The notes beneath the pieces are model-generated. The model was not told where the DNA came from and ran no database searches. It saw nothing but the letters and a program-made list of their open reading frames with translations. A stretch of DNA of 64,000 nucleotides from Naegleria gruberi (taxonomy: Eukaryota), in NCBI GenBank assembly GCA_000004985.1, contig GG738860.1, one strand, 5' to 3'. Below are positions 31,400 through 62,429 of this stretch, piece by piece. Within the stretch, counting starts at the first letter, position 1. Each line of letters opens with the position of its first letter. Position numbers and translations under genes: made by a program.

Positions 31400-31482
31400 C
31401 TAAATAGTTTTTTGTTGTTGGGTTGAAAAATTCTAAATTGTTTTCTCTTTTAAATTGCAAGCACCATCCGTTTTAATCAACA

Positions 31483-31559: not shown

Positions 31560-31625
31560 CAGCATTTTTTAATATTTTTATTATTTTCAATTTTAAATTA
31601 AATGTGTTTAAATAATTATATTTAT

Positions 31626-34154
31626 TTACAAAATATTACAAAAACCAGATGATCTATTATTCATATTTGCAAGACTACTGGTTAGATTAGAAATTTGTCT
31701 TGAACTATCAGCAGATTGTTGTTGTAAAACATTAATCATTTGAGTCATTCTTTGTTCGGATTGAGCTTGCTGTTGAGTAAACATTTGATTCATATTTTGG
31801 AGATTTTCCTTATGTTCAAAGAGGAGTCTTTCTTGGAGTTCTTGCATTTTCTTCTTTTCATCATTTGATGCAGCAAGCATTTCTTTTTGGAATTCTTTGA
31901 TTTTGTCCATTGTTTCCTTGTATAATTCTTCTTTGGCTTTTTCAGATTGTTCGAGGTTTTCTAATTGCTGTCTGACTTTTGCAGTTTCTTGTTGGATGGC
32001 TTGATTTTTCAGTCGTTGTTGAATCAAATCTTCCTTGTAGCTCTTAACTTTCTTCAACTTGTTTTTATCTAATTCACTTCTTTCTTCAAAGAAGGTTTTA
32101 AGTACTTCAGTCTTGGCTGGTCCTTTTGCTCTCTGATCGTATAATTTACCAATCTGATCAAAGACAAGCTCAATATCTTCCATTGACTTGTTCTCAATAT
32201 CATTTTCAAGAGATTCAACTGCTTGTTTGTGAAGAGAGGAGATTATCTCATGACATTGCTTTCTAGATACTTCACGATTCTTCAAAAAGAAAGAGTGAAT
32301 TAAACCTCCAGTGATATTGCCAGACTTATCTGTGGTCATGAATGAATTTGCCAATTTTTCAAACTCCTTCTTGATAACATCTTCATCGGTAAAGACAACA
32401 TTTTGGGAAAATCTTTTTCCCAATGTTGCAATAATGTTTCCATGAATTTCCAATAGTTCAGTATGCTCAATAGGCAAAGGGCATTCAACGATCTTTTCAT
32501 TCATCATGGTAGTGTACAATTCAGGGAGTAGTTGCTCTTCCTTTCTGAGTGATGTTTCAGAAATGAGAGAAATTGGATCAGAGAATGAAGGAACCATTCC
32601 AGGAGTATTCAACTTGAAAATATAATTGAACAATACTACTGGCAAATGATCTATTGTCATTTGAGCCTTTGATCCATGTTTGTTGTGGAAATATTTTGGT
32701 GGTGCATTTTGAACAATTTCATAAACGACCTGTTCCACCTTTTGCAAGAACTCTGGGTTCAGATAATGCCAATAATCTGCAATGGAGGTAAGAATTTGGG
32801 TACTGACATGTGGAGGTGGAATAGTATCATATCTCCTGTTTTGGAAATACATGACGATATCCCTAACAATATTATCCAATTGGTCATCTCCACGTTTAAG
32901 AATTTCTCTTTCCATGTAGCTGTCAAGAGTCTGGCCATATGGAAGTTGTAAAAACACGTCCCTCATTATCCAGTGGAAAAATGGTGAATAGGAGCCTTTC
33001 TCCAAACTAAGGGTTTCAGCAATTTTGGATACAAATGACAAATGGTGCAAGTCAGATCTTTTTGGTGAGCTTTGTGAGTTGTAAACAAAGTAAGATGAAA
33101 TCAAAACTGAAAGAATTAAGAGCAAGTAATCATTATCATTTGAAGCGTCAGTTGAGTTCATGCCTTCACAGTCCAAAACGAGCAACAAAGTCTCTTTTCC
33201 TTCAACAAGAGAGCAAGACATCCAGATTCCTTTGGTTTTAGCAATCACTTCATTACCCAATTCAAATGCAGTAAAAGTTCTGTCATTAATCAATCGACAT
33301 GACAAGAGACTTTTACCTAATCTCATAGGTCCTGATACAGTTACGATACCAATAGGAATTTTGCCAAAATTCTTGACCATTGTTCTTATAGCCTGAACTG
33401 ATTCTCTGACGAGATACAATCTATCAGGAGCTCTACAATTGGAATCAACGAGACCAGTTTGAGGATTGACATATCCTTCACTTCCATTCAATTTCACCAT
33501 TTGACTTGTTTGTGGATCAAAGTAGTGATCTGTAAATTGAACAAGAGGAATACTTTTCATGCCCTCTAGGGGAAAACTTTCGCCTTCATCAAAAAACTCC
33601 TCGTCCTTAACATATTCAGGGATTGATTCAATACTAATTGGTCTAGTATCACCTCTCGTAGTGGCTCTTTTAGTTACTGTTTGAGGAAATGATCTTGGAA
33701 TACTTGGTGAAGGTCGTATATGGGCTCTCCTTTCAAATTGGTCAGAGTGCTGAGAATTGTTACCAACAAAACCTGGAGAAAATTGATACATTGGCTGTGG
33801 ATTATTTTGAAATGGATTCACATTGAAGTATTGGTAAGGAGGAAGATGATTACCAAATGAAACAGGAGTGCTAGCTCCATCAAATGTTGATTCTGGTAAA
33901 TAAGCTTGTCCAGTAACTTCATGTTGTTGAGGATTTCCAAACGCCATGGGATAGAATCCATTGTTTACATTATTGTTCATTTGTGGTTGAGGAATAATAT
34001 AACGTGGAAATGGCATTTGAGAATTGTAATAGGACGGAACACCAACCGAGAAATCACTCATTTGAGAGTTTGGAGTGGTCGTTCTTGGACAATAGTTTGA
34101 ATCTCCCTTATTGCTTTGCATTGTTTTTTTTGTTTTACTTGCAGAAATGATCAT
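31626..34154 (-). CDS. GBP-like large GTPase, paralog 2: Q/N/P-rich prion-like N-terminus + GBP GTPase domain + helical/coiled-coil domain + CaaX (CNIL)
   Basis: IGIVTVSGPMRLGKSLLSCRL (canonical G..R.GKS P-loop), AKTKGIWM, LVLDCEGM, ILSVLISSYFVYNS. The C-terminus is ...NNRSSGFCNIL* (CaaL box; human GBP2 ends CNIL). The first ATG in frame is at 34154 (the ORF track starts at a TTG at 34163). Confidence 0.8.
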   Translation of the reverse strand: MIISASKTKKTMQSNKGDSNYCPRTTTPNSQMSDFSVGVPSYYNSQMPFPRYIIPQPQMNNNVNNGFYPMAFGNPQQHEVTGQAYLPESTFDGASTPVSFGNHLPPYQYFNVNPFQNNPQPMYQFSPGFVGNNSQHSDQFERRAHIRPSPSIPRSFPQTVTKRATTRGDTRPISIESIPEYVKDEEFFDEGESFPLEGMKSIPLVQFTDHYFDPQTSQMVKLNGSEGYVNPQTGLVDSNCRAPDRLYLVRESVQAIRTMVKNFGKIPIGIVTVSGPMRLGKSLLSCRLINDRTFTAFELGNEVIAKTKGIWMSCSLVEGKETLLLVLDCEGMNSTDASNDNDYLLLILSVLISSYFVYNSQSSPKRSDLHHLSFVSKIAETLSLEKGSYSPFFHWIMRDVFLQLPYGQTLDSYMEREILKRGDDQLDNIVRDIVMYFQNRRYDTIPPPHVSTQILTSIADYWHYLNPEFLQKVEQVVYEIVQNAPPKYFHNKHGSKAQMTIDHLPVVLFNYIFKLNTPGMVPSFSDPISLISETSLRKEEQLLPELYTTMMNEKIVECPLPIEHTELLEIHGNIIATLGKRFSQNVVFTDEDVIKKEFEKLANSFMTTDKSGNITGGLIHSFFLKNREVSRKQCHEIISSLHKQAVESLENDIENKSMEDIELVFDQIGKLYDQRAKGPAKTEVLKTFFEERSELDKNKLKKVKSYKEDLIQQRLKNQAIQQETAKVRQQLENLEQSEKAKEELYKETMDKIKEFQKEMLAASNDEKKKMQELQERLLFEHKENLQNMNQMFTQQQAQSEQRMTQMINVLQQQSADSSRQISNLTSSLANMNNRSSGFCNIL

Positions 34155-34228
34155 ATCAGACAAAACGTGTGAGTGTATTATGCTTCATCTCATTACACGT
34201 TTCGATTTCAGGTTTGTAATAATAGAGT

Positions 34229-34248
34229 AAACGTGATCCATCACGTTT
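34229..34248. promoter_or_regulatory. perfect palindrome AAACGTGAT-CC-ATCACGTTT in the 170-bp divergent promoter between GBP paralogs 2 and 3
   Basis: aaacgtgatccatcacgttt: 9-nt arms, 2-nt spacer. Two further half-site variants sit at 34163-34170 (AAACGTGT) and 34195-34202 (ACACGTTT) in the same intergenic region. Confidence 0.4.
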
Positions 34249-34323
34249 GGTATTAAAGTGGTTTCAATTTTAAAGTAATTAAAGCCAGCTCTAGCTTTAC
34301 TATAATGCAATAATTAAAAAACA

Positions 34324-36759
34324 ATGCAATCTGCTAAACCTCTCATATTATTCAAAAGCTCTGTTAATGGAGAATTAAATTCATCTGATTGTGGTGAACC
34401 TTTTCTGGTTCAAGAAACAGTCAATGAATTACTACAATTGACCGATTTACTCAACAAACCAGTCAAGGTAATTGGAGTATGTGGTCCAAAGAGGGCTGCT
34501 AAAACTTCTCTTGCCAATTATCTTGCTCAATCTGTATCATTTGAAGTTGGACATTCAATTGAGTCCAAAACAAAGGGTATTTGGTTGTTTGTAGTTGATA
34601 AACAAGATCATTCCTTAATCATTTTGGATTCTGAGGGTTTTGATGAAGCCTCAACTGCCCAAGATCAACTCTTGTTCATTATCCTGTACTTTTTGTGTTC
34701 CCTCCTTGTTTTCAATACCAGTCATGTGCCAACAAGACAAAATGTTCAAGATTTACAATTTCTAGCCGAATTTAAATCCAAGCTACTTGTATCTGAAGCT
34801 TCAACCCATAACAAATCTGTTCATCCAACCTTCTTGAATTCATTTGGTCCAAACTTTTTATGGTTGATTAGGGATAAATTCTTGAATATTCCCAACGAAT
34901 TTCAAGACATGGAAGATTTCATGTTGAGAGTAGTCCTGGCAAAATCAAATGATGGAAAGGATCATTTGAGAGAAAACATTCTCACCATCTTCAATAGAGT
35001 CTTCTTTGATTTTTTACCTGTACCTGGAGAGCCATCATTCCAGTCAAAATTGGAACATGTTACAATGAATGTTATTTTGGCTAATGTTCCATTAAAAAAA
35101 TTGGTCAATCCTGAAGATATTGGCGATAGAGAAAGTGTTACTTTGGAAACATTCCTTAAATTGGTTGAACTTGTTATTCATCAAATGACTCGAACTCTTA
35201 ACAAGATTCCAGTAATTGACAATATTTTTCATACCATCACCTCCAATAAGGAAATTTACAATTTAAAACGTGCCGTTCAAGTATACGTTGATCACATGAG
35301 CAGGGAACTTGATGATATTGACCCAGTTGACTATGACATATTCACTGAAATAGATAAGCAAGCTGTTGCTAAGGCAACCAAAACCTATTTTGAAGGAATT
35401 CCATCTTCAACTGCAGATTCGAATAGATTACTTTCTGATCTCATGCAAAAGAAGAAGAGTTTCATTGACGACCAAAATGAAAAATCCAAAACATATTGTA
35501 CCTCTCTCATCAAACAATTGTACTCGAAAATGGTTGCTCCCCAAGTAAAACAGTTAATGAATGTCAGAGGTGATATTTCCATGTTGCTTGACACTATTGA
35601 TAAATTCAAGAAGGAATACCATTCGAAAGCTAAAGGAAACATGGCAGTCTCTGTTTTGAATGGCTATTATAATCATCATATTACTAAGGATTTGAATAAT
35701 TTGAGTTCAATAAGAGAGTATGAAGAGAATGTGAAGAATATTAAGGAAGAATTTTCTCACAACTTGGTTCAGTTGAAGGAAGCTGAAAAATCTCTTGTCA
35801 CATTTGAGAACAATATTTCTCAAAATACAAACTATCAACAAATGCTAGAAATGCAAACAAAACTGCAATCTGAACTCTTTAAAGAAGTGATGATTGCTCA
35901 GAGGGAATCACAAGCTAATACTCTAGTCTCCATTGATATGCTCTCAAAGAGTATGCATGACTCTCAGAGACAAGCTCTTAGCATGTATTCTGCAATGCAA
36001 CAATCTCAGCAACAAGCACAAACTCAACAATTAGCTCTCGTTCTAGAGCATAATAGAATTGCAAGTGAGCAACTTAATCAAGCAATGGAAAAAACTACTC
36101 AAGCAGTAATTCAGTATAATGCCAATAGAGAAGATGATTCTTTTTTGGGAAAGGTTGGAAAGATTGGTTTAATAGTTGGTTTAGGTGCTTTGGCACCTGC
36201 ATTGGGTGCCATTCCACATGTTGGATCTGTCCTCTCTGCAACAGCTACAGGAATGAGTGCAGTTATGGGAAAGCAATTGCTCGGACAAGAATATGACCCA
36301 AGACTAATTCAAACCAATACTACTCCTACTCCTCCAAAGGTTAGTCATAGTCCATCAGTCAATCGAGACTCCTTATTATCTCAATTCACAACCAATGCTC
36401 TCTCACAACAAGTGCATCCACAAAATCAACAAGTAACCAACAGCCATCAACCAAGAGCTGTTGTTAGCCAGCTGCCAAGAAAGAATCCTATTGTGCAACC
36501 TCAAAAATCTTCAATCACAGAGTCCACAAAATATGAATTGGGTGGAGAGTTTAAACAAGTTGGCCTCAATGGATCTTATTCCAATACTGTTACAAAAGAT
36601 ATGTTTCCTTATGGCTGTCAATGGGGATGTGGACGTGAAAATGTTTGTTCAAAGCCAGGCCATTCATGTGGAAGACCATCATGCAATGAGGAAAGAAATA
36701 AGAAATCCTATTTCAAAGGCACACTTGGTGTAATGTCAACAACAAGAAACAAGTTGTGA
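34324..36759 (+). CDS. GBP-like large GTPase, paralog 3 (divergent: degenerate P-loop, Gly-rich hydrophobic segment, Cys-rich C-terminus, no CaaX)
   Basis: VKVIGVCGPKRAAKTSLANYL (P-loop with AKT in place of GKS), ESKTKGIWLF, LIILDSEGFD, LFIILYFLCSLLVFNTS. Downstream is a helical domain, then GKVGKIGLIVGLGALAPALGAIPHVGSVLSATATGMSAVMG (glycine-zipper/TM-like) and a Cys-rich tail YGCQWGCGRENVCSKPGHSCGRPSCNEE. Confidence 0.7.
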   Translation: MQSAKPLILFKSSVNGELNSSDCGEPFLVQETVNELLQLTDLLNKPVKVIGVCGPKRAAKTSLANYLAQSVSFEVGHSIESKTKGIWLFVVDKQDHSLIILDSEGFDEASTAQDQLLFIILYFLCSLLVFNTSHVPTRQNVQDLQFLAEFKSKLLVSEASTHNKSVHPTFLNSFGPNFLWLIRDKFLNIPNEFQDMEDFMLRVVLAKSNDGKDHLRENILTIFNRVFFDFLPVPGEPSFQSKLEHVTMNVILANVPLKKLVNPEDIGDRESVTLETFLKLVELVIHQMTRTLNKIPVIDNIFHTITSNKEIYNLKRAVQVYVDHMSRELDDIDPVDYDIFTEIDKQAVAKATKTYFEGIPSSTADSNRLLSDLMQKKKSFIDDQNEKSKTYCTSLIKQLYSKMVAPQVKQLMNVRGDISMLLDTIDKFKKEYHSKAKGNMAVSVLNGYYNHHITKDLNNLSSIREYEENVKNIKEEFSHNLVQLKEAEKSLVTFENNISQNTNYQQMLEMQTKLQSELFKEVMIAQRESQANTLVSIDMLSKSMHDSQRQALSMYSAMQQSQQQAQTQQLALVLEHNRIASEQLNQAMEKTTQAVIQYNANREDDSFLGKVGKIGLIVGLGALAPALGAIPHVGSVLSATATGMSAVMGKQLLGQEYDPRLIQTNTTPTPPKVSHSPSVNRDSLLSQFTTNALSQQVHPQNQQVTNSHQPRAVVSQLPRKNPIVQPQKSSITESTKYELGGEFKQVGLNGSYSNTVTKDMFPYGCQWGCGRENVCSKPGHSCGRPSCNEERNKKSYFKGTLGVMSTTRNKL

Positions 36760-46741: not shown

Positions 46742-49700
46742 TTAGTGAATAGTTTCATACAACTCCATTGCAGTATCAAGCAATAAAGTATCAAATAGTT
46801 GGTCAGTAATAAAGTTTTTGATCATTTCTTCTTCGAGGTTTGAGGATTTCCATTTTTCTGCAGGTTTGAGGATACCAGGAATTAAAGGAATTGAATGTTT
46901 TGGAAGGTATTCATTTTCCATGTCAGAGAGTGTATGATCAACAAATTGCTCATTCTTGGATAATTCAAAGGATTTAACAAGGCTATCAAACACAAATTGG
47001 AAAGGAGTCAATTGATGAACATTGGTGTAATTATTCTTTTTCTTTCTAATATTTTCTTCTCTTCCAAAGACGTGACCCTTAAATGCAACTCCAACGTGTT
47101 CAGATTGCATGATGGTGTTGTATTCACTCAGGTAAAAATTGAATGATTCCAAGACGAGTTGATTAAAAGCATCTTGATTAGGATTGGATGACTTTTCAAG
47201 AACTGATACGTCAACAAGATTACAGACAGATCCAACCTTGTCTAGATTCTTATCCTTAGAATTGTTGTGAATAATATTTAGAAGATTTTCTACATGTTCC
47301 CTAGTTTGAATAATTTCTCCTGATCTTGGTTTTTCTTTGAGGGAAGGTAATGGACCTAGTTTAGTATTGAAAACATGGTATTCGTCATGATCGTGAATGT
47401 GCATATCTGATAAAGTTTCTCCAGTAAAGTCTTCATCTTCGTCGTGATGATCAACTTGCTGTGGAGATTGTTGCTCGTGTAAGTGAATATCATCATCACC
47501 AATAGTATTTTCGTCTTCAATAGAATCGCTGGAAAAGTCAAAGTCATCTTGCTCCAATACTTCTTCTTCCACGTGGAACTTTTCAGTTTGAGGTGATGGT
47601 TCTGAGTCAACCTTGTTTTCGTCGAAATCTTCAAAATCAGAACTAATATCATCATCAAAATCTGATTGAGCAAGCATTTGTTGCTGTTTAGCATCTTCTT
47701 CGTCATTGAGCTTCTTTAACCTAAGTTCTTCTTGTCTTTGCTCTTCCTTTCTGAGTTCTTCTTGACGTAACTGTTCCTTTCTCAATTCTTCTTGTCTTTG
47801 TTCTTCTCTTCTGACTTCCTCCAACTCTTGTTGTTTTTGTTGTTCCTTTCTTAATTCCTCTCTTCTGAGCTCTTCTTGACGTAATTGCTCTTTTCTTAAC
47901 TCCTCTTGTCTCAGATCTTCCTTTCTTTGTTCTTCTCTTCTGATTTCGTCTTGACGAGTTAATTCCTTTTGGTTTTGTTCTTGTTGCTTCAACTCGTCTT
48001 TCAATTTGAGGATTCTGAGCTCTTCCTTTCTCAATTCTTCCTTTCTGAGCTCTTCCTTTTCGATTTCAGCTTGTTTACGTTTCTCCTGTCTAATACGTTC
48101 GTCCTCAAGCTCTTTGTTCCTTAATTGCTCCTTTCGTTTGATTTCCTCTTGTTGCTCTTGCAGCATTTCCATCTTTTTTCTAATTTCTTCTTCAGATGCT
48201 TCTTGCTTTTTGAGTGAATTCTTCAACAATTCTTCTTGCTTTTCCTTCTCCCTTCTGAGTCTTTCTTCTTCTTTTCTCAACTCTTCCTTTTTCTTTGAAT
48301 AGGTAAGTCTTTCTTCTTCAAGTCTTGCCTTTTCTTCATCGAGTTGTTGCATTTTGAGTTTTTCTTGCTCTACTCTGTCTTGTTGTCTTCTTTGGAACTC
48401 TTGCTTTTCTTGTTCTAATTGCTCCTGTTCCTCATGAAGTCTTTCGAGCTCTTCCCTAATGCTATCCTCTCTTTCAGAATCTTGTAAGAGTAACTCCCTC
48501 TTGAGCTTTTCTTGCTTCTCTTGTTCCTTCTTGAGAAGAATTTCCTTTTGTTTTACAAGCTCTTGTTCCATCTTTTTGGCAAGCTCTTCTTCCTTTCTTT
48601 TGGCAACTTCCATCTCAATGTGTTTACGAAGATTATCTTCCTGTTCCAATTGATTTCTTCTCATTTCATCCTCATGTTCTTTGGCAAGACGTTGTTGATC
48701 TTCGAGCTGCTGTTTACTTTCATTGAGCTTGTTTTCAAGTTGCTTTCTGAGAGACTTTTCTTTTTCGAGCATTTCTCTCAACCTATTCTCTTCTTGAATC
48801 TTTCTTTCAGTCTCTTCTTCGAGTTCTCTTCTCTTTCTTTCTTCATTGAGCAATTTTTGTCTAAGAACCTCTTCCTGACCCTTGAGTTTAACAAGATTTT
48901 GTTCTTCTTCTAACTTTTTTCTGAGAGCTTCTTCCATCTTTTTAGAAAGCTCCTCTTCCTTTCTTTTGGCAATGAGCTCAATTTGTTTTCTAATTATTTC
49001 TTCCTGCTCGGCCTGTCTTCTCTTTAATTCTTCTTCTTGTTCCTTCAAGAGCCTTTGTTGTTCCTCTTTATGTTTGAGAAGTTGTTGTTCCATCTTTCTG
49101 TCCATCTCTTCCTCTTTTCTTTTAGCGACTTCCATTTCGATCTGGACACGAAGCTTTTGCTCTTGGTCGAGTTGCTTTCTCTTAAGGTCATCTTCTTGCT
49201 CACGAACAATACGTTGTTGCTCTTCAAGTTGCTGCTTACTCTTGCTGAGCTTGTCTTCAAGTTGCTTACGTAAAAGTTTTTCTCTTTCAAGCATATCCTT
49301 AAGCTGAGACTCTTCTTCAAAGAACTTTTCAGTTGTTTGTTCGAGTTCCCTCCTCTTTCTCTCTTCAGATAAGAGCTTGTGTCTCAAAGCTTGCTCTTCA
49401 TTCTTGAGTTTGAGAATATTATTTTCTTCCTCCAACTTTCTCTTCAACTCTTCTTCCATATTTCTGGAGAGTTCATCGTCCTTTCTCTTAGAGACAAGTT
49501 CAAGCTGCTTACGAATAATGTCTTCTTGTTCAATATGTCTTCTTCTCATTTCCTCTTCTTGTTCTCTAGCAAGACGTTGTTGTTCTTCGAGTTGTTGTTT
49601 ACTCCTACTGAGCTTATCTTCAAGTTGCTTACGTAAAAGTTTTTCCTTCTCAAGCATGTCTTTCAATTGCTTATCCTCTTCAGATAGCTTTTCATTGGAA

Positions 49701-51813
49701 TCTTTGAGTTCGCGTCTCTTGGCCTCTTCTTCGATGAACTGAGTGATGATTGACTCTCTTTGGGCAAATTGTTGTTCAAGTCTCAACCTCATCTCTTCAT
49801 CCCTCTTTCTACGTTCATTATCGATTTCTTCTAACTTTTTTCTAATAATTTCCTCTTCTATTTGTCTCTTCATTACATAATCTTGTTCTATCTTCTTCAG
49901 AAGATTTTCCTTAATTTCATTTTCAATTTTTGCCTTGAGATCCTCTTGAGTGATTTCTTCATCAACTCTCTTCAGCTTTTTTCTCTTTACAGAATTCGAT
50001 ACAGGAGAAGTAGAAATTTCCTCAGATGATGTTTCGCTTTCATAAGAGGTTTCTGAAAGCTTTTTATCTTGAATCATGAGTTCATTCTTGACCTCCTTGA
50101 TCTTTTGCTCTATCTTCTTGGAACGAAGCAATTGTTGTATCTTGGCCTCTTGCTTCTTCTTTTTGGAACGAAGAGCTTTGAGTTCCATTTTCATATTCTC
50201 AATGTTTCTTTCTCTCTCTTCGAATTCTGTTGAAACACTCAGTGTTTCTTCAAAAGACATACTCGAAGTAGTATCCATCAAAGATTCTTCTCTAAGAAGT
50301 TGACTATTATGAATATTTTCAGCCTTTTTACCCAGCATTTCAAGAGCTTCTTCTTCTTTTTTAATTTCATTTTCCAACTTCTTTTCGAGCAAGCTAGCTC
50401 TTTTGATGTTTATCGAAAGAATACTCTCTTCTGATTGTTTGATTTTCTCAATTACATTGAGAGAATCAATTAATCGCCTTGAGATGTCTTCCTTAGACTT
50501 TTCATCAGGCTTTTTACCTTGAGGAGAAGTACCAACTTGGGCATCCATCGTTAGTTTTGGTTTTTCAACTTCTTTAAAAATTTCTCTATCAACAAAGTTT
50601 GGATGAGAAACAAAATTAGGTGAAGGCTTAGTGTAAACAATGTTTGTAGGTTGGCGTCTTAGAAGGTCATCAGTACTAGGTAATTCAAGTATCTCTGGAC
50701 TTGATGGTCTCTGTTCAGTCCAAGCTTGTTTTATGGTATTATTGTTCGATGGATGGTTTTGAATATAGGACGAGTTATGATTATCTTGGTGGGATGTCAC
50801 AATTACTTTTGACATTGGTGGAGAGGAATGGATTGGGCTGAATGGTTGTTGAGCGAAAATGGTTGGCTCTGTTTTGTACATTTCCTTTCGTATCTCTGAG
50901 TATACGTGTGGGAACATGACTTCTCGTCTGTCAATCTCGGAAGGGTATAGATTATGATCATAATATAATGGTGCAGAATATGGCCTAGTGTCCGTTTCTG
51001 ACTTGGTCTTTTTAACTTTCTTTTTCTTTGCATCTCCACTTGATTTTTCCCCTTCCTTTTTTTTAGATTTTTCTTCTTTTCGTATTGAGGAAGAAGGTGG
51101 AGTCTTAGATCTATGTTTCTTTAAAAGAGAATCCAAAGTTGTTACTATTTTTTGTTCTTGTTCGGATGTCATCTTTTTCATCTTCTTCTTTGGAGAAATA
51201 GATTTCTTCTTAGGTTTTGGCACTGTCTTGCTTACATATGCTTCTAATTTTTGAAGTGTTTGTTCTCTCTTTGTCCTTTCGGCTTCCTTTGCCTTATTAA
51301 TCTCTGCTTTTTGATTAAATATTTCCTTCTGCTTCTTTTTCATAAACTCTTTTACTTTATCCTCATCATAGGGTTTCTTTCTATCCATATAATAAGGCTT
51401 TAAATCAACCTTAGGTTCTTCCTTAGGTTTTGTTATTGGAGCTTTTTGAAGGACTGGTGGTGTTGTGGAGGAAGACTTTTTTGGTGGAGCTGAAGATGGT
51501 CTTGTTTCATAGGGTGATTTTTTGCTCGGTGTTGATGATTTACTACTCAAAGAAAACAAGGTTAGAATTTATCAAGAATTCAAGAATTCAACACTTACGA
51601 TGTGTTTGTTGTTGTGGCTGTATTGGGTTGTTGTTGATCTGTTGCTGTATTGTTGTAGCTGTTTGTAAATAAAACTCGTGATGTTATTGTTGGTATGGCT
51701 GTATTATAACCAGAAAAGAAACTATCTTCCTCATGTATTGGATCCCTAACTACCTCAGGAGATGCCGATTTTTCTTGGACGACATTGTGAGGCGATTGGG
51801 AATGTGTGGACAT
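46742..51813 (-). CDS. giant (~1.67k aa) Glu/Lys/Arg/Gln-rich trichohyalin-like coiled-coil protein, 2 exons (51813-51599, 51545-46742), with internal ~129-aa repeats and a globular C-terminal domain
   Basis: Exon 1 is MSTHSQSPHNVVQEKSASPEVV...NTATTTNTS|GTAAGT, then a 53-nt intron. The central part contains at least 3 copies of L(K/R)(D/E)MLEKEK(L/S)LRKQLE(D/N)KL..SKQQLE(E/D)QQR(L/I)..E.E..., then short EELRKEQLRQ-type octad repeats. The C-terminal ~330 aa are non-repetitive. Confidence 0.7.
48400..49800. repeat. imperfect tandem DNA repeats (~0.39-kb unit, at least 3 copies) inside the coiled-coil gene; approximate bounds
   Basis: The same antisense Ser/Leu/Cys-rich pseudo-peptide (CCSSSCCLLLLSLSSSCLRKSFS) recurs at about 49236 and about 49623. 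The sense protein repeats are listed above. Shorter 24-nt GA-rich repeats continue to about 47700. Confidence 0.55.
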
Positions 51814-52003: not shown

Positions 52004-52744
52004 TTACATGCATAATGTAAAATACAATAATACTAGTAAGGTGATCAAAGTTGTAGTACCTCCTGATAGACTTGAATGTAGTGTCATTGAATTGCCTGTA
52101 CACATGACAGAATCTGCCATATCAAAACTCTTCCAAGAACCTTGATAAACTCTATTAATTCCATTACTTGTTGATAGACATCTAAAATCTATCAACTCTC
52201 TCGAGTTACAACTTGCATAATAATTCTCACACGAGGACATGCAGAGATTGTAAATTTGTGTTGACTCGTCCCTACTCACATCACATAGTGGAAAGAAGTG
52301 TTGACAAATGTAACGTCTTGCTGCATTGTAGCACTGACTTTTTTGAAATAATCCCTTGTGATAGACTTCCGAGTTGAATGATAATAATGCCTGTCTATCA
52401 CTCAATTTTAAATAATCAACAATTGTCAAGTTGTAAGAGTCAAAGGTTGATGAAGAATTGGTGAGTGTTAAATTATTAGATATGCAAATTCGTATCGATT
52501 CGTTGAGTGTCATGTACTCGTTGATAGTTTCCAAGCAGAAAGTTTCGTTTGCATTCGTTTGCGAAATAAAATCATAGAGAAGAGGAGAAGATAGAGAGGT
52601 ACATTCACCCGAACAAGATCCATAGAAATTGTTATTGTTTAATGTTTCCGATTCGTTCATAAGTGTGAACACCAAGAGAATGACAAGAAAGAATGAAGGA
52701 TTTTTCATGTTGTTGGAATTTTTTTTGATTTGTGAATTGGCCAA
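52004..52744 (-). CDS. secreted/GPI-anchored-type Cys-rich protein (signal peptide, many N-glyc sequons, C-terminal hydrophobic tail); possible Frizzled-like CRD
   Basis: The N-terminus MKNPSFFLVILLVFTLMNES is a signal-peptide candidate. There are 14 Cys with spacing ...CQHFFPLC...LCMSSCENYYASC...C..., multiple N.T/N.S sequons, and a C-terminal GGTTTLITLLVLLYFTLCM* (GPI-signal-like). Confidence 0.5.
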   Translation of the reverse strand: MANSQIKKNSNNMKNPSFFLVILLVFTLMNESETLNNNNFYGSCSGECTSLSSPLLYDFISQTNANETFCLETINEYMTLNESIRICISNNLTLTNSSSTFDSYNLTIVDYLKLSDRQALLSFNSEVYHKGLFQKSQCYNAARRYICQHFFPLCDVSRDESTQIYNLCMSSCENYYASCNSRELIDFRCLSTSNGINRVYQGSWKSFDMADSVMCTGNSMTLHSSLSGGTTTLITLLVLLYFTLCM

Positions 52745-52812
52745 TAATTATAATCACCTCAATTTTTGTCTCGAAACGAGGATGTGCTTGCAATTTAAAT
52801 TTTAAAAAAAAA

Positions 52813-53327
52813 ATGATGTCAGCAACAGGAAATCATCATGAACAACAAAATAATGAACAACAGCAGTCGGAAAGAGCCAACCGTAAAAAGATTTTAGATG
52901 CTGTCTTGGAGTATTATTCAGAGGCTTTTTCTATAGAAAAAAGTAACGAGCAAATTAAAAACAAAATGGACCTTTGTTTACCGAAACATGTCTGTAAGCG
53001 TATTTCATTTAAATTATTGAAAACAGGAGCAAATATAAATTCCATTAGTGAGAAAGTTTTGAAAATTCCAAAAAAAGAAAAGAAAATTGAAAATCATGAA
53101 GAAGTGCTTCTTTCCCAAGCAGACTTGGATGATTTTAATAAGGAACCAACACAACATGACACTGAGGAGAAAAAAAAACAAATAATGGAGTATACTGAGC
53201 AGTATGTTCAGAAAAAGTCACAGAGTGTGCTTTCACAGATGGATAGTATTACTTTTCCCAAAAAGATTAGAGCAAGACTTGATCAAATTTCTAATATTAT
53301 TGCTAAAACCTGTATTCATCTAGAAGA
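52813..53327 (+). CDS. 5' part of a hypothetical gene running into the 1484-N gap
   Basis: ATG at 52813: MMSATGNHHEQQNNEQQQSERANRKKILDAVLEYYSEAF... is open to the gap edge. No family recognised. Confidence 0.4.
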
Positions 53328-54811
53328 NNNNNNNNNNNNNNNNNNNNNNNNNNNNNNNNNNNNNNNNNNNNNNNNNNNNNNNNNNNNNNNNNNNNNNNNN
53401 NNNNNNNNNNNNNNNNNNNNNNNNNNNNNNNNNNNNNNNNNNNNNNNNNNNNNNNNNNNNNNNNNNNNNNNNNNNNNNNNNNNNNNNNNNNNNNNNNNNN
53501 NNNNNNNNNNNNNNNNNNNNNNNNNNNNNNNNNNNNNNNNNNNNNNNNNNNNNNNNNNNNNNNNNNNNNNNNNNNNNNNNNNNNNNNNNNNNNNNNNNNN
53601 NNNNNNNNNNNNNNNNNNNNNNNNNNNNNNNNNNNNNNNNNNNNNNNNNNNNNNNNNNNNNNNNNNNNNNNNNNNNNNNNNNNNNNNNNNNNNNNNNNNN
53701 NNNNNNNNNNNNNNNNNNNNNNNNNNNNNNNNNNNNNNNNNNNNNNNNNNNNNNNNNNNNNNNNNNNNNNNNNNNNNNNNNNNNNNNNNNNNNNNNNNNN
53801 NNNNNNNNNNNNNNNNNNNNNNNNNNNNNNNNNNNNNNNNNNNNNNNNNNNNNNNNNNNNNNNNNNNNNNNNNNNNNNNNNNNNNNNNNNNNNNNNNNNN
53901 NNNNNNNNNNNNNNNNNNNNNNNNNNNNNNNNNNNNNNNNNNNNNNNNNNNNNNNNNNNNNNNNNNNNNNNNNNNNNNNNNNNNNNNNNNNNNNNNNNNN
54001 NNNNNNNNNNNNNNNNNNNNNNNNNNNNNNNNNNNNNNNNNNNNNNNNNNNNNNNNNNNNNNNNNNNNNNNNNNNNNNNNNNNNNNNNNNNNNNNNNNNN
54101 NNNNNNNNNNNNNNNNNNNNNNNNNNNNNNNNNNNNNNNNNNNNNNNNNNNNNNNNNNNNNNNNNNNNNNNNNNNNNNNNNNNNNNNNNNNNNNNNNNNN
54201 NNNNNNNNNNNNNNNNNNNNNNNNNNNNNNNNNNNNNNNNNNNNNNNNNNNNNNNNNNNNNNNNNNNNNNNNNNNNNNNNNNNNNNNNNNNNNNNNNNNN
54301 NNNNNNNNNNNNNNNNNNNNNNNNNNNNNNNNNNNNNNNNNNNNNNNNNNNNNNNNNNNNNNNNNNNNNNNNNNNNNNNNNNNNNNNNNNNNNNNNNNNN
54401 NNNNNNNNNNNNNNNNNNNNNNNNNNNNNNNNNNNNNNNNNNNNNNNNNNNNNNNNNNNNNNNNNNNNNNNNNNNNNNNNNNNNNNNNNNNNNNNNNNNN
54501 NNNNNNNNNNNNNNNNNNNNNNNNNNNNNNNNNNNNNNNNNNNNNNNNNNNNNNNNNNNNNNNNNNNNNNNNNNNNNNNNNNNNNNNNNNNNNNNNNNNN
54601 NNNNNNNNNNNNNNNNNNNNNNNNNNNNNNNNNNNNNNNNNNNNNNNNNNNNNNNNNNNNNNNNNNNNNNNNNNNNNNNNNNNNNNNNNNNNNNNNNNNN
54701 NNNNNNNNNNNNNNNNNNNNNNNNNNNNNNNNNNNNNNNNNNNNNNNNNNNNNNNNNNNNNNNNNNNNNNNNNNNNNNNNNNNNNNNNNNNNNNNNNNNN
54801 NNNNNNNNNNN
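53328..54811. other. assembly gap (1484 N)
   Basis: Run of n. Confidence 1.
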
Positions 54812-55584
54812 ATTTAATTAACAATATGGAAATTAAATATTTAGGATTAAAAAATGAAATTTTTATTTCAATTTTATCACCAACAATTGTGTGGTATGAT
54901 TACTTTGTTTCAAATTATTGTAAAATTTATCCATTAAAAGATTATAAATTAATTTTATTATTAATTATTAAATTATTTATTGATAATTTAAATGGATTAA
55001 AATTATTACATGAATTAAATATTTCACATATTGATTTTAACATTTTAAATTCTAACATAATATTAAATAATTGTTCTGATTTAATTAGTAAATATTTAAA
55101 AGAAAATAATTTACCAACATTTAATATGGTATTAATTGATTTTAATAGTTCAAAATTAGAAAGTCAATTATTATTTACAAATGAATACATTCCAAAAACA
55201 ACACATTATCCTCCTGATTATAAATTATATTATGATAATATAAAACCAAATATATCATTTACAAAAGCACATGATATTTATTCATTATCTATTGTAATGA
55301 TTCAATATATTAACATTTTGATTAATTGTTATGGGAATAATTGCTTTCAAATGAAATCAAATACTATTAGATATATAAATCAATCACATAGAAACAAAGA
55401 CGAACCATTCAATATTGATTTTAATATTTTAAATTTTAATATTTTAAATAGTTTTGAAAAGGAAATTTTTAATGAATTATTTGAAATGATAAGAGAAATG
55501 AATTTAAACCCTTGGAAAATTATTAATGAAAAAGATTATTGTTTACAACAATTAGAAAAATTACAAAATAATGTATTGAATTAG
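54812..55584 (+). CDS. extremely AT-rich protein-kinase-like C-lobe fragment (possible pseudokinase); 5' end lost in gap
   Basis: It is open from the gap edge to TAG at 55582-55584. LHELNISHIDFNILNSNIIL (HRD-region-like with HID), LIDFNSS (DFG-like DFN), PPDYKLYYDN (APE-like), DIYSLSIVM (DIWSLG-like). Composition is about 85% A+T versus about 65-70% elsewhere. Confidence 0.35.
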
Positions 55585-56023: not shown

Positions 56024-58735
56024 ATGAAAAGAAAACCAATCACGTCATCCTCTGCCAGCAAGAAGGCGAAAACTACCAATACAGAACAGCAACCAATAAT
56101 CATTTCATCACAAGATTCGAATAATGAAGAATCGAACAATGATCAATATTATGATCCGGATACTATCTTTCTATTAGATTCCAATGGTGAGTTTGTGATA
56201 ATCCCCGATGACCAAGAACCAATTTCATCAGAAGAAACAGAAGAAACTAATTTATTAGTTTCATCATCGCAATCACCACCTTTTGATTATTCGATTTATA
56301 CTAGTATCGATCAATTTCTAATAATTCCCACACACAACTTGATAAAGGAAATTCCACACGAAATTATCGCAAATTGGATGTTCTACATGGACAAACAAAC
56401 TCTTTTCAATTTCATTAGAGTTTCTCGAGAAGTTTACAATATATTTGATGAAATTTATGCAGAGAGTGTGGAAAGATTGAGATTGGAAATTTTAAATAAC
56501 AAGAGAAAGAGTAGTGATTTGAATCGATTATTGGATTTGTTTTCGAATGAAAGTCGAGAGAGAAGTGGTGAGAAAGTTATGCTGACCTATGATGACTATT
56601 TCAGAATGAGAAGTTTTACACCGTGGCCTTTGAGTTATTTTCATGATAGGACTCGGTTTGAGAGTGTTGTGAATGAAAATGATCCTCAAATTAAAGTTAT
56701 TAATGAAAAGGCAGATGAACAGATGGCACGTCTATTAGAAATGAATAATGAACAAATGAACAAAGAAACTGCTCAATATGAAAAGGTATTGCCATATGGA
56801 GTTTTTCCAAGAAAAGACATTTACTATTTGACTTTTAATCAATTGGTAAAGAGAAAGTGTGTCAAAAATCTGAAAGAAGACTTGTACATGTATACAGATC
56901 AAGCATATAAAATTGAAAGAGTGATAACAAGTGATTTATATGCAAATGAGGAGAAGAAATATAGTGTGGATTATCATACATATGTGGATAAACACAGTCA
57001 TCCAACAACTGTATATATTGAGAGAATTGTTCGGTTTTTCAAACATCCAAATGAAATGACATTCTCTGACTTTGATAATAGATTCAAGAATAATTTTCTT
57101 AGTGAACTAGCAAGAATATTAGTATATGATTGTGTATTTGAATATAACAAATCAACCAAGACAAGAGAAAGATTTGTTGTATCTGGTGGATCACTGCTTC
57201 ACACTCTTACTGGATGTGGCTGTCAAGATATTGACATTTTTATTATCAATAATCAAGAACCCGATGAAATTGTCAATCAAGCAATCAAACAGGTTTTATT
57301 GAAATTTGAAGAAAAAACCTCAAACTTTACCTATAATATAATGGGTTCAAAAACTACTATTAATATTTGTGAAGAAAGACCTAAAATGAGTATTGCAAAT
57401 GGTTATAGAGTTGAGACCAATCAGAATATTCAGATTGTTCTTTTGAGATATGATTCCATTGAAGAGTTATTACTATTCTTTGATTTGGATTGCTGTAAAT
57501 TGGCATTTGATGGAATTAGAGTTTACACAGTATTGGAATGTTTGAGATCTTTAAAATATAAGATTAACTTTCTTCCAAAACGGACAGGAAATACAGAAAT
57601 CAACAGAGCTAGGGCTTTAAAATACGGTTTTAGAGGTTTTTTTACTTTCACACTCGATACAGATCATCCTCTCTCTCATGCCATGCATTGTGACTTTGTT
57701 GTTGAGAAGCTCAGAAAAAAGATAACAACAGAATACAAAGAGACCCGAATTGATGATATTTACAATGGTAGACGAAATCCTACGACTCAGTTCTTTGTGC
57801 AACCAAAAGATTTTAGCTTTGCAGCACCTATGAAGGAATCGTCAGATCTCGATGAATCAAATTACCTCTATCCATTGATATTGAGAAATGTGGATTATCA
57901 TTTTGTTGATTTGTGTAAATCTATTGGACTCGGTGCTGCATTGTGGAAATTGAAAAAAAACATTTCGAGAGAACGTTCTTGTTACATATTTGATTTCCTT
58001 CTCGATGGAGATACTAAAAGCAAGGCCCTATTCACTTCTGAATTGAAATTAGAAAATTCTGAAAGAAAGGGTGGTTCTGAAATGTTAGAAAAGCTAATTT
58101 CATTAGATGGCTACACATTCTTAGATAGACCTTCTGAACTTTTCAAAAACCTGCAACAAGATTATAATCTCGTCAAAAACAAGTATTCATACTCTCACCT
58201 AGTTCAGAAATATAATATTGTGAATTGTGCCAAATGTTCCAACTATATTTATTCAACACAAATTGCATCTCAATTGAGGTTAAAGAAGAGACAACATGAC
58301 TCGTCCATTGAAATTCCAAAATTTGACACAATTAACGAAAATAATTTCAATCCAGAAATTCATTTCTGTTGTGATTCCTGTTTAAGGAAGGTGAATGGCA
58401 TGATAAAGTTTAGAGCTTTTATCCAATCAACAAGTTATGGAGTTTCTGGAGCTGAAAAAGGAATTGTAACTCTGTTAGTGGAACAAGATCAGAATTCAGG
58501 AATTTCAAAGAGGAAAATCTTTATATATTTGGAAGGGGCTTATGGACTGGAAGAATTGCAAATTGCATTTTATTCCTTACTGAATTATAGGAAATATATT
58601 GAGTACATTTCAGTGGATGATGAAATTCATGTAAAATTGGCAAACACAACAATTGTTTCGTCTGACTATGAAGTTCTCTATCCTCCAAAAACTTACCCTC
58701 CAAAATTTGATTGGATGTTCAATGGATCAATGTGA
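56024..58735 (+). CDS. 903-aa protein with F-box-like motif, a Pol-beta-type nucleotidyltransferase core motif and C-terminal Cx2C...Cx2C pairs
   Basis: Uninterrupted ORF. LIIPTHNLIKEIPHEIIANWMFYMDKQTLFNFIRVSREVYNIF is F-box-like. FVVSGGSLLHTLTGCGCQDIDIFI fits h[GS]S-x11-DhD (cGAS/OAS/Cid1-type NTase signature). A candidate third acidic residue sits about 83 aa later (LLFFDLDCC). Cys pairs are CAKC...CCDSC. Confidence 0.55.
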   Translation: MKRKPITSSSASKKAKTTNTEQQPIIISSQDSNNEESNNDQYYDPDTIFLLDSNGEFVIIPDDQEPISSEETEETNLLVSSSQSPPFDYSIYTSIDQFLIIPTHNLIKEIPHEIIANWMFYMDKQTLFNFIRVSREVYNIFDEIYAESVERLRLEILNNKRKSSDLNRLLDLFSNESRERSGEKVMLTYDDYFRMRSFTPWPLSYFHDRTRFESVVNENDPQIKVINEKADEQMARLLEMNNEQMNKETAQYEKVLPYGVFPRKDIYYLTFNQLVKRKCVKNLKEDLYMYTDQAYKIERVITSDLYANEEKKYSVDYHTYVDKHSHPTTVYIERIVRFFKHPNEMTFSDFDNRFKNNFLSELARILVYDCVFEYNKSTKTRERFVVSGGSLLHTLTGCGCQDIDIFIINNQEPDEIVNQAIKQVLLKFEEKTSNFTYNIMGSKTTINICEERPKMSIANGYRVETNQNIQIVLLRYDSIEELLLFFDLDCCKLAFDGIRVYTVLECLRSLKYKINFLPKRTGNTEINRARALKYGFRGFFTFTLDTDHPLSHAMHCDFVVEKLRKKITTEYKETRIDDIYNGRRNPTTQFFVQPKDFSFAAPMKESSDLDESNYLYPLILRNVDYHFVDLCKSIGLGAALWKLKKNISRERSCYIFDFLLDGDTKSKALFTSELKLENSERKGGSEMLEKLISLDGYTFLDRPSELFKNLQQDYNLVKNKYSYSHLVQKYNIVNCAKCSNYIYSTQIASQLRLKKRQHDSSIEIPKFDTINENNFNPEIHFCCDSCLRKVNGMIKFRAFIQSTSYGVSGAEKGIVTLLVEQDQNSGISKRKIFIYLEGAYGLEELQIAFYSLLNYRKYIEYISVDDEIHVKLANTTIVSSDYEVLYPPKTYPPKFDWMFNGSM

Positions 58736-58989: not shown

Positions 58990-59063
58990 TACCGACAATG
59001 GGGCTCGAACCCACGACCCCAGGATTAGAAGTCCTGTGCTCTATCCAACTGAGCTATGACGGC
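58990..59063 (-). tRNA. tRNA-Arg (anticodon TCT) candidate
   Basis: The reverse complement is GCCGTCATAGCTCAGTTGGATAGAGCACAGGACTTCTAATCCTGGGGTCGTGGGTTCGAGCCCCATTGTCGGTA. D stem GCTC/GAGC, anticodon stem CAGGA/TCCTG with loop CTTCTAA, and T arm GTGGG-TTCGAGC-CCCAT are all well formed. The acceptor stem has G1.T72 and T5.T68 non-Watson-Crick pairs. AAATTGTTTT follows the 3' end. Confidence 0.6.
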
Positions 59064-59532: not shown

Positions 59533-61245
59533 ATGGTACTACATGATGCTTCCCCAACAACAACGAGTAGTGCGGTTGACCAACAAATTAAACAATACAG
59601 GTTTAAAATAGAGGCTGTTTTTGACCACAAGGAGGCGAGAGAAATATTTAGGGAATATATGAAGAAGGATTGTCTCAATGAAGGTGAGTTTACTTTTACC
59701 TTTCGAATAATAATTATTGTGTTATTGTGATGGTTTCGAATTATCACCACCAATCAAAATAATCAATTAATTTCAAACACAACTCTCAATTAAAAATTTG
59801 AATAAGAACCCTTGTTATTTTACGAAAGTGTTGAAAAATACTTGAACACCCGATTAGATAAGAATCGATTAGAATTGGCTGCTGATATCACTGAACATTT
59901 CATCACAGTTAGCCAACATGAATTAAACCTCTCCATGTCTATTCGAAATGATATCCTAACCCGATGGGAACAAATCGAAGAAAGAAACAAGAATGTCATT
60001 GATGATGATTTAATTGCCTGTCCAATTGATTTATTCAGCAGAGCTCAGGATGTAATTTTCATCGAGATGAAACAAGATAATTTTTCAAGATTTGTCGATT
60101 CTGATATTTTCAAAAAGTTTCTAATAAGAGAATTGAAGAAGAATGATCATATTTTGGAATCTTTGGGCACGTGTAAATTCAATTCAAGAACTGGCTCTTT
60201 GGGAAGTTTATCATCTGAGGATTTGATGAATAATTTGACACCAGTTTCATCTTCCATTTCATCTTCACCATTACATGCAATTTCACATTCACAACCAAAT
60301 AATTCTAGTTTTTCTGGGAATGTGAATTTAACTCCAAGAAGTTCTCAAGATAGTGAGAGTGATTCACTCGATGAGAAAATTGCAACTTTCTATGAGAAAC
60401 AAAATGATTCGAATGAAAGTTTACTCTTGCCAATTATTGATGATATGAGTCCATATATAACTCCAAAAGATTATGATTTGGGAATGAAACTTGTAAATTC
60501 ATTGAATGATTCGAATATGTGGAAAACTATTGATGAAAAAGTTGGACTCAAGACACTTGTCAGTAATCCTGTTTTTAGTTTTTCTCCAAGAAAGAGTGAA
60601 AGTGGGAAGATAATTGTCTGCAATTCTGGAATTCTCACTGGTAAACCAAGAGATTGGTTGAATTTGTTATTCTCTGATTCTATCAATAAGATGATTCATG
60701 AAAAGATGAAGAAGAGATTCCAAGTTGACTATATCAAAATTAATCCAAAGAATGGAGCTCACTACCCAAACACAATAGTATACACTGAAGCTCAATTTCC
60801 ATTTCCATTGACTAATAGAGATTTCATCTTTTGTAGAAGTGTAATTCCAGATCTTTACAATGAAACTACTGGAGAATATGACAGATATGTCTTTATTCAA
60901 AAACCAACTCAACATCACGAATATCCAGCCAGAAACTCACCAATCAGAGCACTCCACTACATTTTCTACATTGTTGAAAAGAAGACTCAATCCAGTGTTA
61001 AATATTCAGTATTCGAAACTGGAGATCTCTCCGGCAAAATTCCACCAAAGATTGTTTCAAGCTTTTTCAAGACTATTGCTAATGCCATGCACAAGAAAGT
61101 CATCAAAGCATGTGAAAAGATCTATAACGAAGAAATCGTTTCCAAAGATGCTGATGGCGCCCTATCAACCCTCACTGAAATGCTCAAATATTTGGAACAT
61201 GAAAGAGCTAACAAGTCAAACTCAACAATAGCTGAAAAACATTAA
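59533..61245 (+). CDS. RGS domain + START (Bet v1-like lipid-binding) domain protein, 2 exons (59533-59683, 59807-61245)
   Basis: Exon 1 is ...YRFKIEAVFDHKEAREIFREYMKKDCLNE|GTGAGT, with a 123-nt intron. Exon 2 is EPLLFYESVEKYLNT...IDLFSRAQDVIFIEMKQDNFSRFVDSDIFKKFL (RGS box C-terminal signature). The C-terminal ~200 aa are RDFIFCRSV...IRALHYIFYIVEKKTQSSVKYSVFETGDLSGKIPPKIVSSFFKT (START-like). Confidence 0.65.
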
Positions 61246-61394
61246 TACTTGTGTAAAATATATTCATCATCATCATGGATTTCAATATCAGAATTTTTGA
61301 GAGTTTCTGATATTTTTGTAAATTCAATAAATTTTTGAAAACAGATTTGAAAACTTTACAAAATTTCTTAGCTGAAAAATCAATAATTAAAAAA

Positions 61395-62429
61395 ATGCAA
61401 ACAAAATTAAATGAATTACCGTTAGAATTGATAAGAGAAGTTCAATGTTACTCTAGTCGTGTTGAATTGATATTTTTGTGGAGTTTTACTTGTCGGAATT
61501 GGAGGCGAATGGTTTGTGAATTGATTTGGGAAGATTACAATGAAGTGATTAAGAAATTTTCCAATAACAGATACGAAATGAATTTCAATGATGATTATGA
61601 AAACTTTCTCTATTCGAAAGAAGGAAGAAAGTTTACTAAATATTTAATTAGAAAGCATGTTTACGAAATGGCTTGTCTCCTATCCGAAGAAGAAGAAATG
61701 ATTGCACAACATTTTGATTCAGTTTCGGAACGATGGATTGATGAACAATTGAAATATTTGAAAAATGTTTTTAATCAATTCTCAGATTTGAAATTAGAAA
61801 AACAAAGTTCAATTGAACTATCCAGATCAACACTATTCGACAATGCTCTTTCCTTCATAGGCTCCTTCTTCTTGCCAAATAATTCTTCAAATGATGTGAA
61901 GGATTTCGATTTCCTTTCAAAAATCCTATTGGAAGGAGAAAGATCGAGTGGAAAGTCATCGTTCCTCTATTGTGCAATGAATAATGGTGAAATTATTCAA
62001 AATTCAATGCCTCCAATTGCCTGTTTTGCTCGGAAAATATTAACAATTGGTCAAGAAAGAGTTAAGATTGAAGTGTGGGAAAGTGGTGGAGAAAGATATC
62101 GGCCTCTGATTGCTGCCAATTATCGAAGAGTTGAATTTATTTTGATATTTGTGGATCCTTTCAAATGGAATTCGAAACAGTCCACTGAATTATTGAGCAA
62201 AATCAAGGAAGATATTGAGAAATATTCATCGAAAAAGATTGAGGTTATCTTTATTACAACAAGGAAAGACATTGAACAAGAGAAACGAAACCTTTCTAAT
62301 GAAAAAGCAGATGAATATGCTTTTGATAATTATTTTGGAGCTCTACATTTCAATATTACAAATAATCAAGCTGAGGAACCAAAAAGAATCATTTGGTATT
62401 GCACATTACTCAAGTATTTACTTTCGTAA
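61395..62429 (+). CDS. F-box-like motif + divergent Ras/Rab-like small GTPase domain (catalytic Gln absent)
   Basis: LNELPLELIREVQCYSSRVELIFLWSFTCRNWRRMV is F-box-like. GERSSGKSSFL is G1, VWESGGERYR is G3 (DTAGQE with the Q missing), and ITTRKD is G4 (NKxD variant). Confidence 0.55.
   Translation: MQTKLNELPLELIREVQCYSSRVELIFLWSFTCRNWRRMVCELIWEDYNEVIKKFSNNRYEMNFNDDYENFLYSKEGRKFTKYLIRKHVYEMACLLSEEEEMIAQHFDSVSERWIDEQLKYLKNVFNQFSDLKLEKQSSIELSRSTLFDNALSFIGSFFLPNNSSNDVKDFDFLSKILLEGERSSGKSSFLYCAMNNGEIIQNSMPPIACFARKILTIGQERVKIEVWESGGERYRPLIAANYRRVEFILIFVDPFKWNSKQSTELLSKIKEDIEKYSSKKIEVIFITTRKDIEQEKRNLSNEKADEYAFDNYFGALHFNITNNQAEEPKRIIWYCTLLKYLLS

Follow-up and report, generated by a model that had tools for sequence, protein, structure and literature searches.

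SPbeta-like Bacillus phages encode a second Gabija anti-defence protein, Gad2, which is 400 amino acids (aa) long and was predicted by AlphaFold2 to be a nucleotidyltransferase (NTase) (bioRxiv 10.1101/2023.05.01.538930). What is already known of its family consists of a Pfam entry and one experimentally validated member, the phage protein Gad2. In class II enzymes, which comprise CCA-adding enzymes and bacterial poly(A) polymerases, the EDxxR sequence of motif D reads the base of ATP or CTP. Here, a protein of 903 aa encoded by Naegleria gruberi in a 64,000-nucleotide stretch of contig GG738860.1 (referred to below as the window) was analyzed. The open reading frame (ORF) had been picked out in a preliminary description of the DNA and was found as described there. 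Our results demonstrate that its central domain of ~215 aa is a Pol-beta-superfamily NTase of the Gad2 family (PF26128), and suggest that the Naegleria protein is a eukaryotic, probably F-box-fused variant of a catalogued enzyme family of uncharacterised function.

Membership of the family is supported by profile comparisons. PF26128 'Gad2' is the precomputed Pfam match on the window protein and on all five of its homologues, and PHROG 1614 'nucleotidyltransferase' matches aa 380-503 (E 1.9e-6). Searches of the whole protein against NCBIfam, PDB sequences and a local copy of Pfam lacking PF26128 returned nothing meaningful, and profile searches of the PDB, for which the Naegleria alignment and an alignment of 112 sequences served as queries, gave nothing significant. 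The core (aa 305-640) was used as a profile in a HMMER search of 1.84 billion cluster representatives at E <= 1e-3, in which 1,711 proteins were matched; all share a domain of ~165 aa corresponding to aa 383-545, and they span protists, fungi, giant viruses and phages. A non-circular hidden Markov model (HMM) was built from the 99 most distant members, with the query and its 30 nearest relatives excluded, and it matches aa 346-550 with E 4.4e-43 when the database size is nominally set to one million sequences. Gad2 sequences for direct comparison were taken from Supplementary Table 10 of bioRxiv 10.1101/2023.05.01.538930. The family HMM matches an experimentally verified phage anti-Gabija Gad2 homologue with E 3.2e-10, while alignment of the family profile with a Gad2 profile by hhalign gave a probability of 98.2% (E 3.7e-14). 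A tblastn search of the NTase domain against 50,697 phage genomes produced no match.

Comparison of the two proteins reveals that Gad2 and the window NTase domain have in common AGG[ST], DxD-h-[FY], the Gln of the third long strand, FD-x-[DT], an Asn and R..KY..[RK]G[FY]; the Gln is present in the verified Gad2 as well (LQIQLIH). For both, enzymatic activity is a prediction. Gad2 is a phage or prophage protein of ~400 aa that combines the NTase with a C-terminal domain of its own and counters the bacterial Gabija system, whereas the window protein is eukaryotic, is 903 aa in length and carries an F-box-like segment, long Naegleria-specific flanks and an element of four cysteines (Cys4). FDFT in Gad2 corresponds to FDLD-CC in the eukaryotic branch. 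Naegleria is not known to possess Gabija, and anti-Gabija activity in phages is a functional trait that probably has no bearing on a gene of a eukaryotic chromosome.

The ORF and the elements of its NTase domain are located as follows.
56024..58735, plus strand: complete single-exon ORF of 903 aa, from the ORF list; standalone Naegleria gruberi gene
57056..57703, plus strand: Gad2-type (PF26128) NTase domain, aa ~345-560, with the family-wide core at aa 383-545
57173..57247, plus strand: motif A, FVVSGGSLLHTLTGCGCQDIDIFII, aa 384-408, in which strand 1 leads through the GGS turn and a helix to strand 2, the site of the metal-binding pair D402-x-D404
57425..57451, plus strand: strand NIQIVLLRY, aa 468-476, bearing Q470, a family hallmark (Q in 125/127)
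57455..57514, plus strand: SIEELLLFFDLDCCKLAFDG, aa 478-497, with D487, D489 and D496, the counterpart of class II motif B
57611..57640, plus strand: helix and turn R530-x2-K533-Y534-x2-R537-G538-F539, the counterpart of class II 'R.LRA.RF...LGF' after motif D

The catalytic signature proposed in the preliminary description, VVSGGSLLHTLTGCGCQDIDIFII, is located at aa 385-408, and D487 lies 83 residues past D404. In its loose form, [GS]S-x11-[DE]h[DE]h, the motif is found a single time in the protein, compared with an expectation of 0.025 per shuffled protein, and has no other occurrence in the ~19,300 aa of the long ORFs of the window. Taken alone, such a motif is weak evidence for an NTase, and the case therefore rests on conservation and structure. 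Regarding the former, the pattern hG[GS]-x9-13-[DE]h[DE]h spans aa 386-407 on strand 1, helix and strand 2, with fitting secondary structure, and is invariant in the six Naegleria homologues that were aligned, in which G388, G389, S390, D402, D404, D487 and D489 do not vary. More distant relatives were then compared through their domain sequences, 127 of which were aligned; most share 20-30% identity with the query. D402 and D404 are present in 127/127 sequences, and the GG pair in ~96% (G388 115/119, G389 114/120). F406 (125/127, as for Q470) and F486 (122/127) are retained to a similar extent, as are D487 (126/127), D489 (119/127) and, less completely, D496 (104/126). Further along the domain follow N515 (123/126), R530 (126/126), K533 (124/126), Y534 (123/126), R537 (119/126) and G538 (118/126). 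The metal- and triphosphate-binding signature GG[SA]-x12-DxD is thus strictly kept across the family, and conservation of the GS and D.D residues, on which the preliminary description had made its proposal depend, holds in orthologues and distant relatives. This retention also bears on whether the NTase-like domain could be catalytically dead and act only in substrate recognition for an SCF ligase, as WD40, LRR or other domains do in F-box proteins. GG, DxD and about ten more polar residues are maintained over the 127 divergent sequences, which is the pattern expected from selection on catalysis, and a dead module is accordingly very improbable.

The fold of the domain was predicted from the alignment. 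AlphaFold2 with 112 family sequences gave a model of aa 330-580 with a pLDDT of 89.3 and a pTM of 0.87, while the six Naegleria sequences alone led to an unusable model (pLDDT 44.9). In the former, a helix is followed by a strand that ends in GGS, a helix, the strand DIDIF, a further helix and further strands. A structural check had been suggested in the preliminary description, and the model indeed adopts an NTase fold with an alpha/beta NTase core. Its structural neighbours are listed below with their tabulated values.
E. coli poly(A) polymerase 3aql, 11.0; 3wfo, 10.9
T. maritima CCA-adding enzyme 3h37, 10.7; A. aeolicus 4wby, 9.8
Arabidopsis CCA enzyme 9kma, 9.4; TENT5B/FAM46B, 9.0
DncV, 6.0; OAS2, 5.6; cGLR1, 5.4; CD-NTases, ~5; Cid1, 4.5
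The same ranking was obtained with Foldseek against the full PDB, in which class II CCA-adding enzymes and FAM46 came first and cGAS and OAS were absent from the top 50. The non-canonical poly(A) polymerases TENT5/FAM46 are neighbours in structure and display no match at the sequence level (no NTase-family Pfam match).

The relation to class II enzymes can also be recognized in sequence profiles. A class II profile was assembled from five sequences, namely E. coli Cca and PcnB together with 1MIV, 4WBZ and 6IBP; a search with the E. coli Cca/PcnB alignment gave only near-identical enterobacterial PcnB and was not used for this purpose. In hhalign, phage and bacterial Gad2 align with the class II profile over 170 columns (probability 84%, E 7.6e-6), and the eukaryotic family aligns with it colinearly over 142 columns (E 1.1e-3). 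In motif A, GGS-x12-DID aligns with GGxVRDxLLGxxxxDxD, with 12 residues between GG and D in both; GG and DxD are present in the window domain, whereas the Arg-Asp of VRD is absent. In motif B, S478-IEELLLFFD487-LD-CC aligns with sLEeDLkRRD-fT-iNA, where the Asp is retained and the Arg-Arg is gone: RRD reads F485-F486-D487 in the window protein, and [GF]F stands in place of RR. D487, D489 and D496 come after a helix and match motif B in this alignment. Subsequently, EDxxR of motif D is not kept, its Asp being replaced by T524 (Ser in the family) and its Arg by N527 (Tyr in the family), after which R530..K533-Y534..R537-G538-F539 aligns with R.LRA.RF...LGF. The Gad2 family has therefore branched off and diverged from the head domain of the class II enzymes.

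It should be noted that this relationship is not orthology. Genuine PcnB proteins bear PF01743 (PolyA_pol) and PF12627, neither of which matches the window protein even at E <= 10, and the RNA-binding neck, body and tail of class II enzymes are absent from it. Since PF01743, PF12627 and motif D are missing, the protein is only distantly related to class II heads and does not qualify as a CCA-adding enzyme; with the Arg-Asp of VRD and the motif B Arg-Arg lacking as well, a CCA-adding enzyme or PcnB orthologue is ruled out. The absence of EDxxR, of the motif B Arg-Arg and of a tRNA-binding body and tail implies that nucleotide and acceptor specificity must differ from those of CCA-adding enzymes.

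These same losses across the family are compatible with a different chemistry, in which a protein side chain or a small molecule, instead of a nucleic-acid 3' end, would be modified by adenylylation or AMPylation, in the manner of the LinB/ANT antibiotic NTases, DrrA/GlnE or MenT-like toxins. The weak sequence matches that were obtained, DrrA (E 1) and AbiEii (E 0.014), point in this direction, as does the architecture of relatives. In 82 relatives, the partner domains are short-chain dehydrogenase (SDR) in 17, BTB_2 in 13, F-box in at least 3 and ankyrin repeats in 1. The 17 SDR fusions include the nearest sister subfamily, from N. fowleri, Willaertia magna and Acrasis kona (P0154, P0009, P0010, P0011), in which an F-box and a Gad2-type NTase are followed by a C-terminal SDR, typically a small-molecule enzyme. 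In the window subfamily, the SDR is replaced by the Cys4 element and a C-terminal region of ~100 aa that is common only to two N. gruberi paralogues. The structural neighbours described above favour a nucleic-acid end, and we regard a small-molecule or protein substrate as rather unlikely.

An affiliation with the signalling NTases cGAS/Mab21, OAS and the CD-NTases had been put forward in the preliminary description. In such a case a ligand-sensing domain would make a cyclic or 2'-5'-linked oligonucleotide messenger in innate immunity, perhaps linked to GBP proteins encoded nearby. Membership of a shared Pol-beta NTase superfamily stands, as judged from fold and conservation, and these proteins have the superfamily fold and the G[GS]...DxD core in common with the window domain, including the GS...DxD motif. 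The family also has a conflict-related member in the phage anti-defence protein Gad2. However, the Mab-21, OAS1_C and SMODS models of Pfam and the CD-NTase models in PADLOC have no match in the window protein, and class II enzymes are nearest in structure. The candidate third acidic residue ~83 aa downstream is real and invariant among the Naegleria homologues, namely D487, yet its counterpart in the alignment is the motif B Asp of class II enzymes and not a third carboxylate of cGAS/OAS type. With the closest structural neighbours outside the group and PADLOC silent, affiliation with cGAS/OAS/CD-NTases was rejected.

Regarding the neighbourhood, three adjacent GBP-like ORFs of 811-899 aa with GBP N- and C-terminal domains do exist at 28700-36759, two on the minus and one on the plus strand, ~19-27 kb upstream of the NTase ORF. 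No evidence was found for a functional link. Unrelated genes, including COG7 and an acyltransferase, as well as an assembly gap, lie between the cluster and the NTase ORF, and no GBP gene occurs within 3 kb of the N. fowleri homologue, on which grounds the link was rejected. No second copy of the NTase domain is present within the window. A messenger-producing enzyme of this type is improbable, and the tempting reading of a new cGAS-like sensor next to GBPs is corrected as unsupported. Compared with the signalling idea, the fallback of the preliminary description, noncanonical tailing of RNA, lies closer to the structural neighbours. The statement made there that no PAP-associated domain is apparent was confirmed, as PF03828 beside NTP_transf_2 was not encountered in the window protein.

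Outside the NTase domain, three segments could be distinguished.
56024..56323, plus strand: N-terminal ~100 aa, of low conservation and enriched in Ser, Glu and Asn, with no conserved columns before aa ~105 and differing lengths in homologues
56348..56452, plus strand: divergent F-box-like segment, aa 109-143, EIPHEIIANWMFYMDKQTLFNFIRVSREVYNIFDE
58226..58381, plus strand: possible zinc ribbon, C735-x2-C738 ... C783-x2-C786, with four invariant Cys
The N-terminal stretch is probably disordered. In the F-box-like segment, the majority consensus of six homologues over aa ~95-160 reaches 21.8 bits with Pfam F-box (gathering score 20.5, E 1.7e-4), three homologues give weak F-box matches at the same position, with paralogues scoring E 0.003-0.06, and several relatives are named 'F-box domain-containing protein' in their source databases. 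The F-box-like motif mentioned in the preliminary description receives weak support; a divergent F-box is probable in the window protein. Regarding the zinc-ribbon-like motif proposed there, C735, C738, C783 and C786 are invariant in six homologues, the two pairs being separated by a spacer of variable length, and family searches gave no significant match here, only a non-significant one to TRASH. The four cysteines themselves suggest a zinc ribbon.

On the basis of these observations, it is moderately probable that the protein is an F-box protein with an active Gad2-family NTase whose likeliest acceptor is a nucleic-acid 3' end. The NTase domain would be catalytically active and transfer a nucleoside monophosphate from a nucleoside triphosphate to a hydroxyl acceptor. 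Because of the structural neighbours, the likeliest acceptor would be the 3' end of RNA or another nucleic acid, by analogy with CCA-adding enzymes, PcnB and TENT5. Through the divergent F-box upstream, the enzyme would bind to Skp1/SCF, which would either control its abundance or link the transfer reaction to the ubiquitylation of a target held by the enzyme, and the C-terminal four-cysteine element may help to bind the acceptor.

Several observations weigh against this proposal. Activity is a prediction for every family member, Gad2 included, and the mechanism of Gad2 was still listed as unelucidated in a review of February 2026 (PMC12904381). An HMM of nine phage and bacterial Gad2 sequences matches the window protein weakly, at 18 bits. 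As for a third catalytic carboxylate on a neighbouring strand, T/N447 and the invariant Q470 are located on the strands that follow DxD, and no conserved acid is seen there. Furthermore, residues typical of the family are changed in the Naegleria subfamily: R/K441 becomes G in the window protein and S or K in its paralogues, R474 is L in 6/6 Naegleria proteins, and N or H takes the place of Y527. These changes may have affected the binding of substrate. At the N-terminal end, the window sequence alone falls below Pfam F-box significance (F-box_4, E 0.17). Finally, the fusion of the NTase domain to a short-chain dehydrogenase in the sister heterolobosean subfamily is a hint that the substrate may be a small molecule and not a nucleic acid.

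The wider family places the Naegleria protein in the company of viral proteins. Named members are found in Naegleria, Willaertia and Acrasis (Heterolobosea), an agaric fungus, a dinoflagellate and a marine protist transcriptome, and the dinoflagellate member is labelled after mimivirus R883. Foldseek against viral models identified many giant-virus proteins (E down to 5e-11), the labels of which are uncharacterised, BTB, ankyrin, VWFA or 'tRNA nucleotidyltransferase/poly(A) polymerase'. In proteins of giant viruses and protists (for example Pandoravirus, Klosneuvirinae, Pithovirus-like viruses, Bodo saltans virus), the NTase domain is joined to ankyrin, BTB, VWA or F-box domains. As is probable for the window protein, the NTase is fused to cullin-RING adaptor or repeat modules, whereas the accessory domains of these proteins, all of them uncharacterised, differ from the arrangement of F-box, NTase and Cys4 in the window protein. 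In the literature that was searched, no paper on eukaryotic or giant-virus members of the Gad2 family was found.

A more speculative reading, which we consider unlikely, is that eukaryotic and giant-virus Gad2-type NTases with cullin-RING adaptors form an uncharacterised enzyme class of host-virus conflict, which would nucleotidylate nucleic-acid ends or proteins and link this mark to ubiquitin-dependent turnover; the adaptor would be the F-box in Heterolobosea and BTB, ankyrin or VWA elsewhere. If this were true, ancestry, and perhaps chemistry, would be common with a phage enzyme that disarms the Gabija nuclease-helicase, and the Naegleria enzyme could reveal the mechanism of Gad2. Independently of such a role, the locus displays the intact catalytic residues of the Gad2 family in a free-living amoeboflagellate and shows the family to be an offshoot of enzymes of the CCA-adding/poly(A)-polymerase type and not of cGAS/OAS. 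The Gad2-type domain has repeatedly been joined to ubiquitin-ligase adaptor modules, both in eukaryotes and in the giant viruses associated with them, and the Naegleria protein offers a tractable, non-phage entry point to the substrate of the family.

The protein had been described as an orphan, which is not the case because homologues were found in a whole-protein search of 5.8 billion proteins. Five full-length homologues with 43-44% identity were obtained, comprising two N. gruberi paralogues, one sequence each from N. lovaniensis and N. fowleri, and one metagenomic sequence, and homologue sequences score E < 1e-140 with the whole protein as query; the large domain family is added to these. 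In addition, the first 902 residues of an annotated N. gruberi 'predicted protein' at NCBI (P0001, 1374 aa) match the ORF at 100% (902/903 identity). This public model fuses the ORF to a downstream RGS-START gene through an 'intron' that deletes the stop codon. The downstream gene has a first exon of its own.
59533..59683, plus strand: RGS-START gene, own first exon (MVLHDASP...CLNE, GTGAGT donor), spliced to 59807; second part 59807-61245
With this exon spliced to 59807, the RGS domain is complete (64 bits, profile positions 3-117), compared with 37.5 bits and profile positions 34-117 in the fused model. Therefore, the ORF of 903 aa is standalone and the public fusion is an annotation artefact; the 1374-aa model was rejected as the true protein, and the mis-fused public gene model is hereby corrected.

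Several further features were observed around the gene. A tRNA-Arg(TCT) gene is located at 58990..59063 on the minus strand, where it separates the NTase ORF from the RGS-START gene and falls within the 'intron' of the public model. Directly downstream of the RGS-START gene, an ORF of 364 aa (61335-62429, plus strand) contains a C-terminal small GTPase domain of Ras/Roc type. On the upstream side, a run of N at ~53320-54820, which is the assembly gap, interrupts the ORF at 52732..55584 and depresses GC values at 52-56 kb. In N. fowleri (contig VFQX01000058.1, 5625-8064), the homologue is accompanied by a SHOCT-domain gene and then by a ResIII/DEAD/Helicase_C gene, a neighbourhood that differs from that in N. 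gruberi. Further upstream in the window, an ORF of 1605 aa without a Pfam match extends over 46742-51559 on the minus strand, and the region displays strong strand asymmetry, with a GC skew of -0.28 and an AT skew of -0.48 at 48-50 kb.

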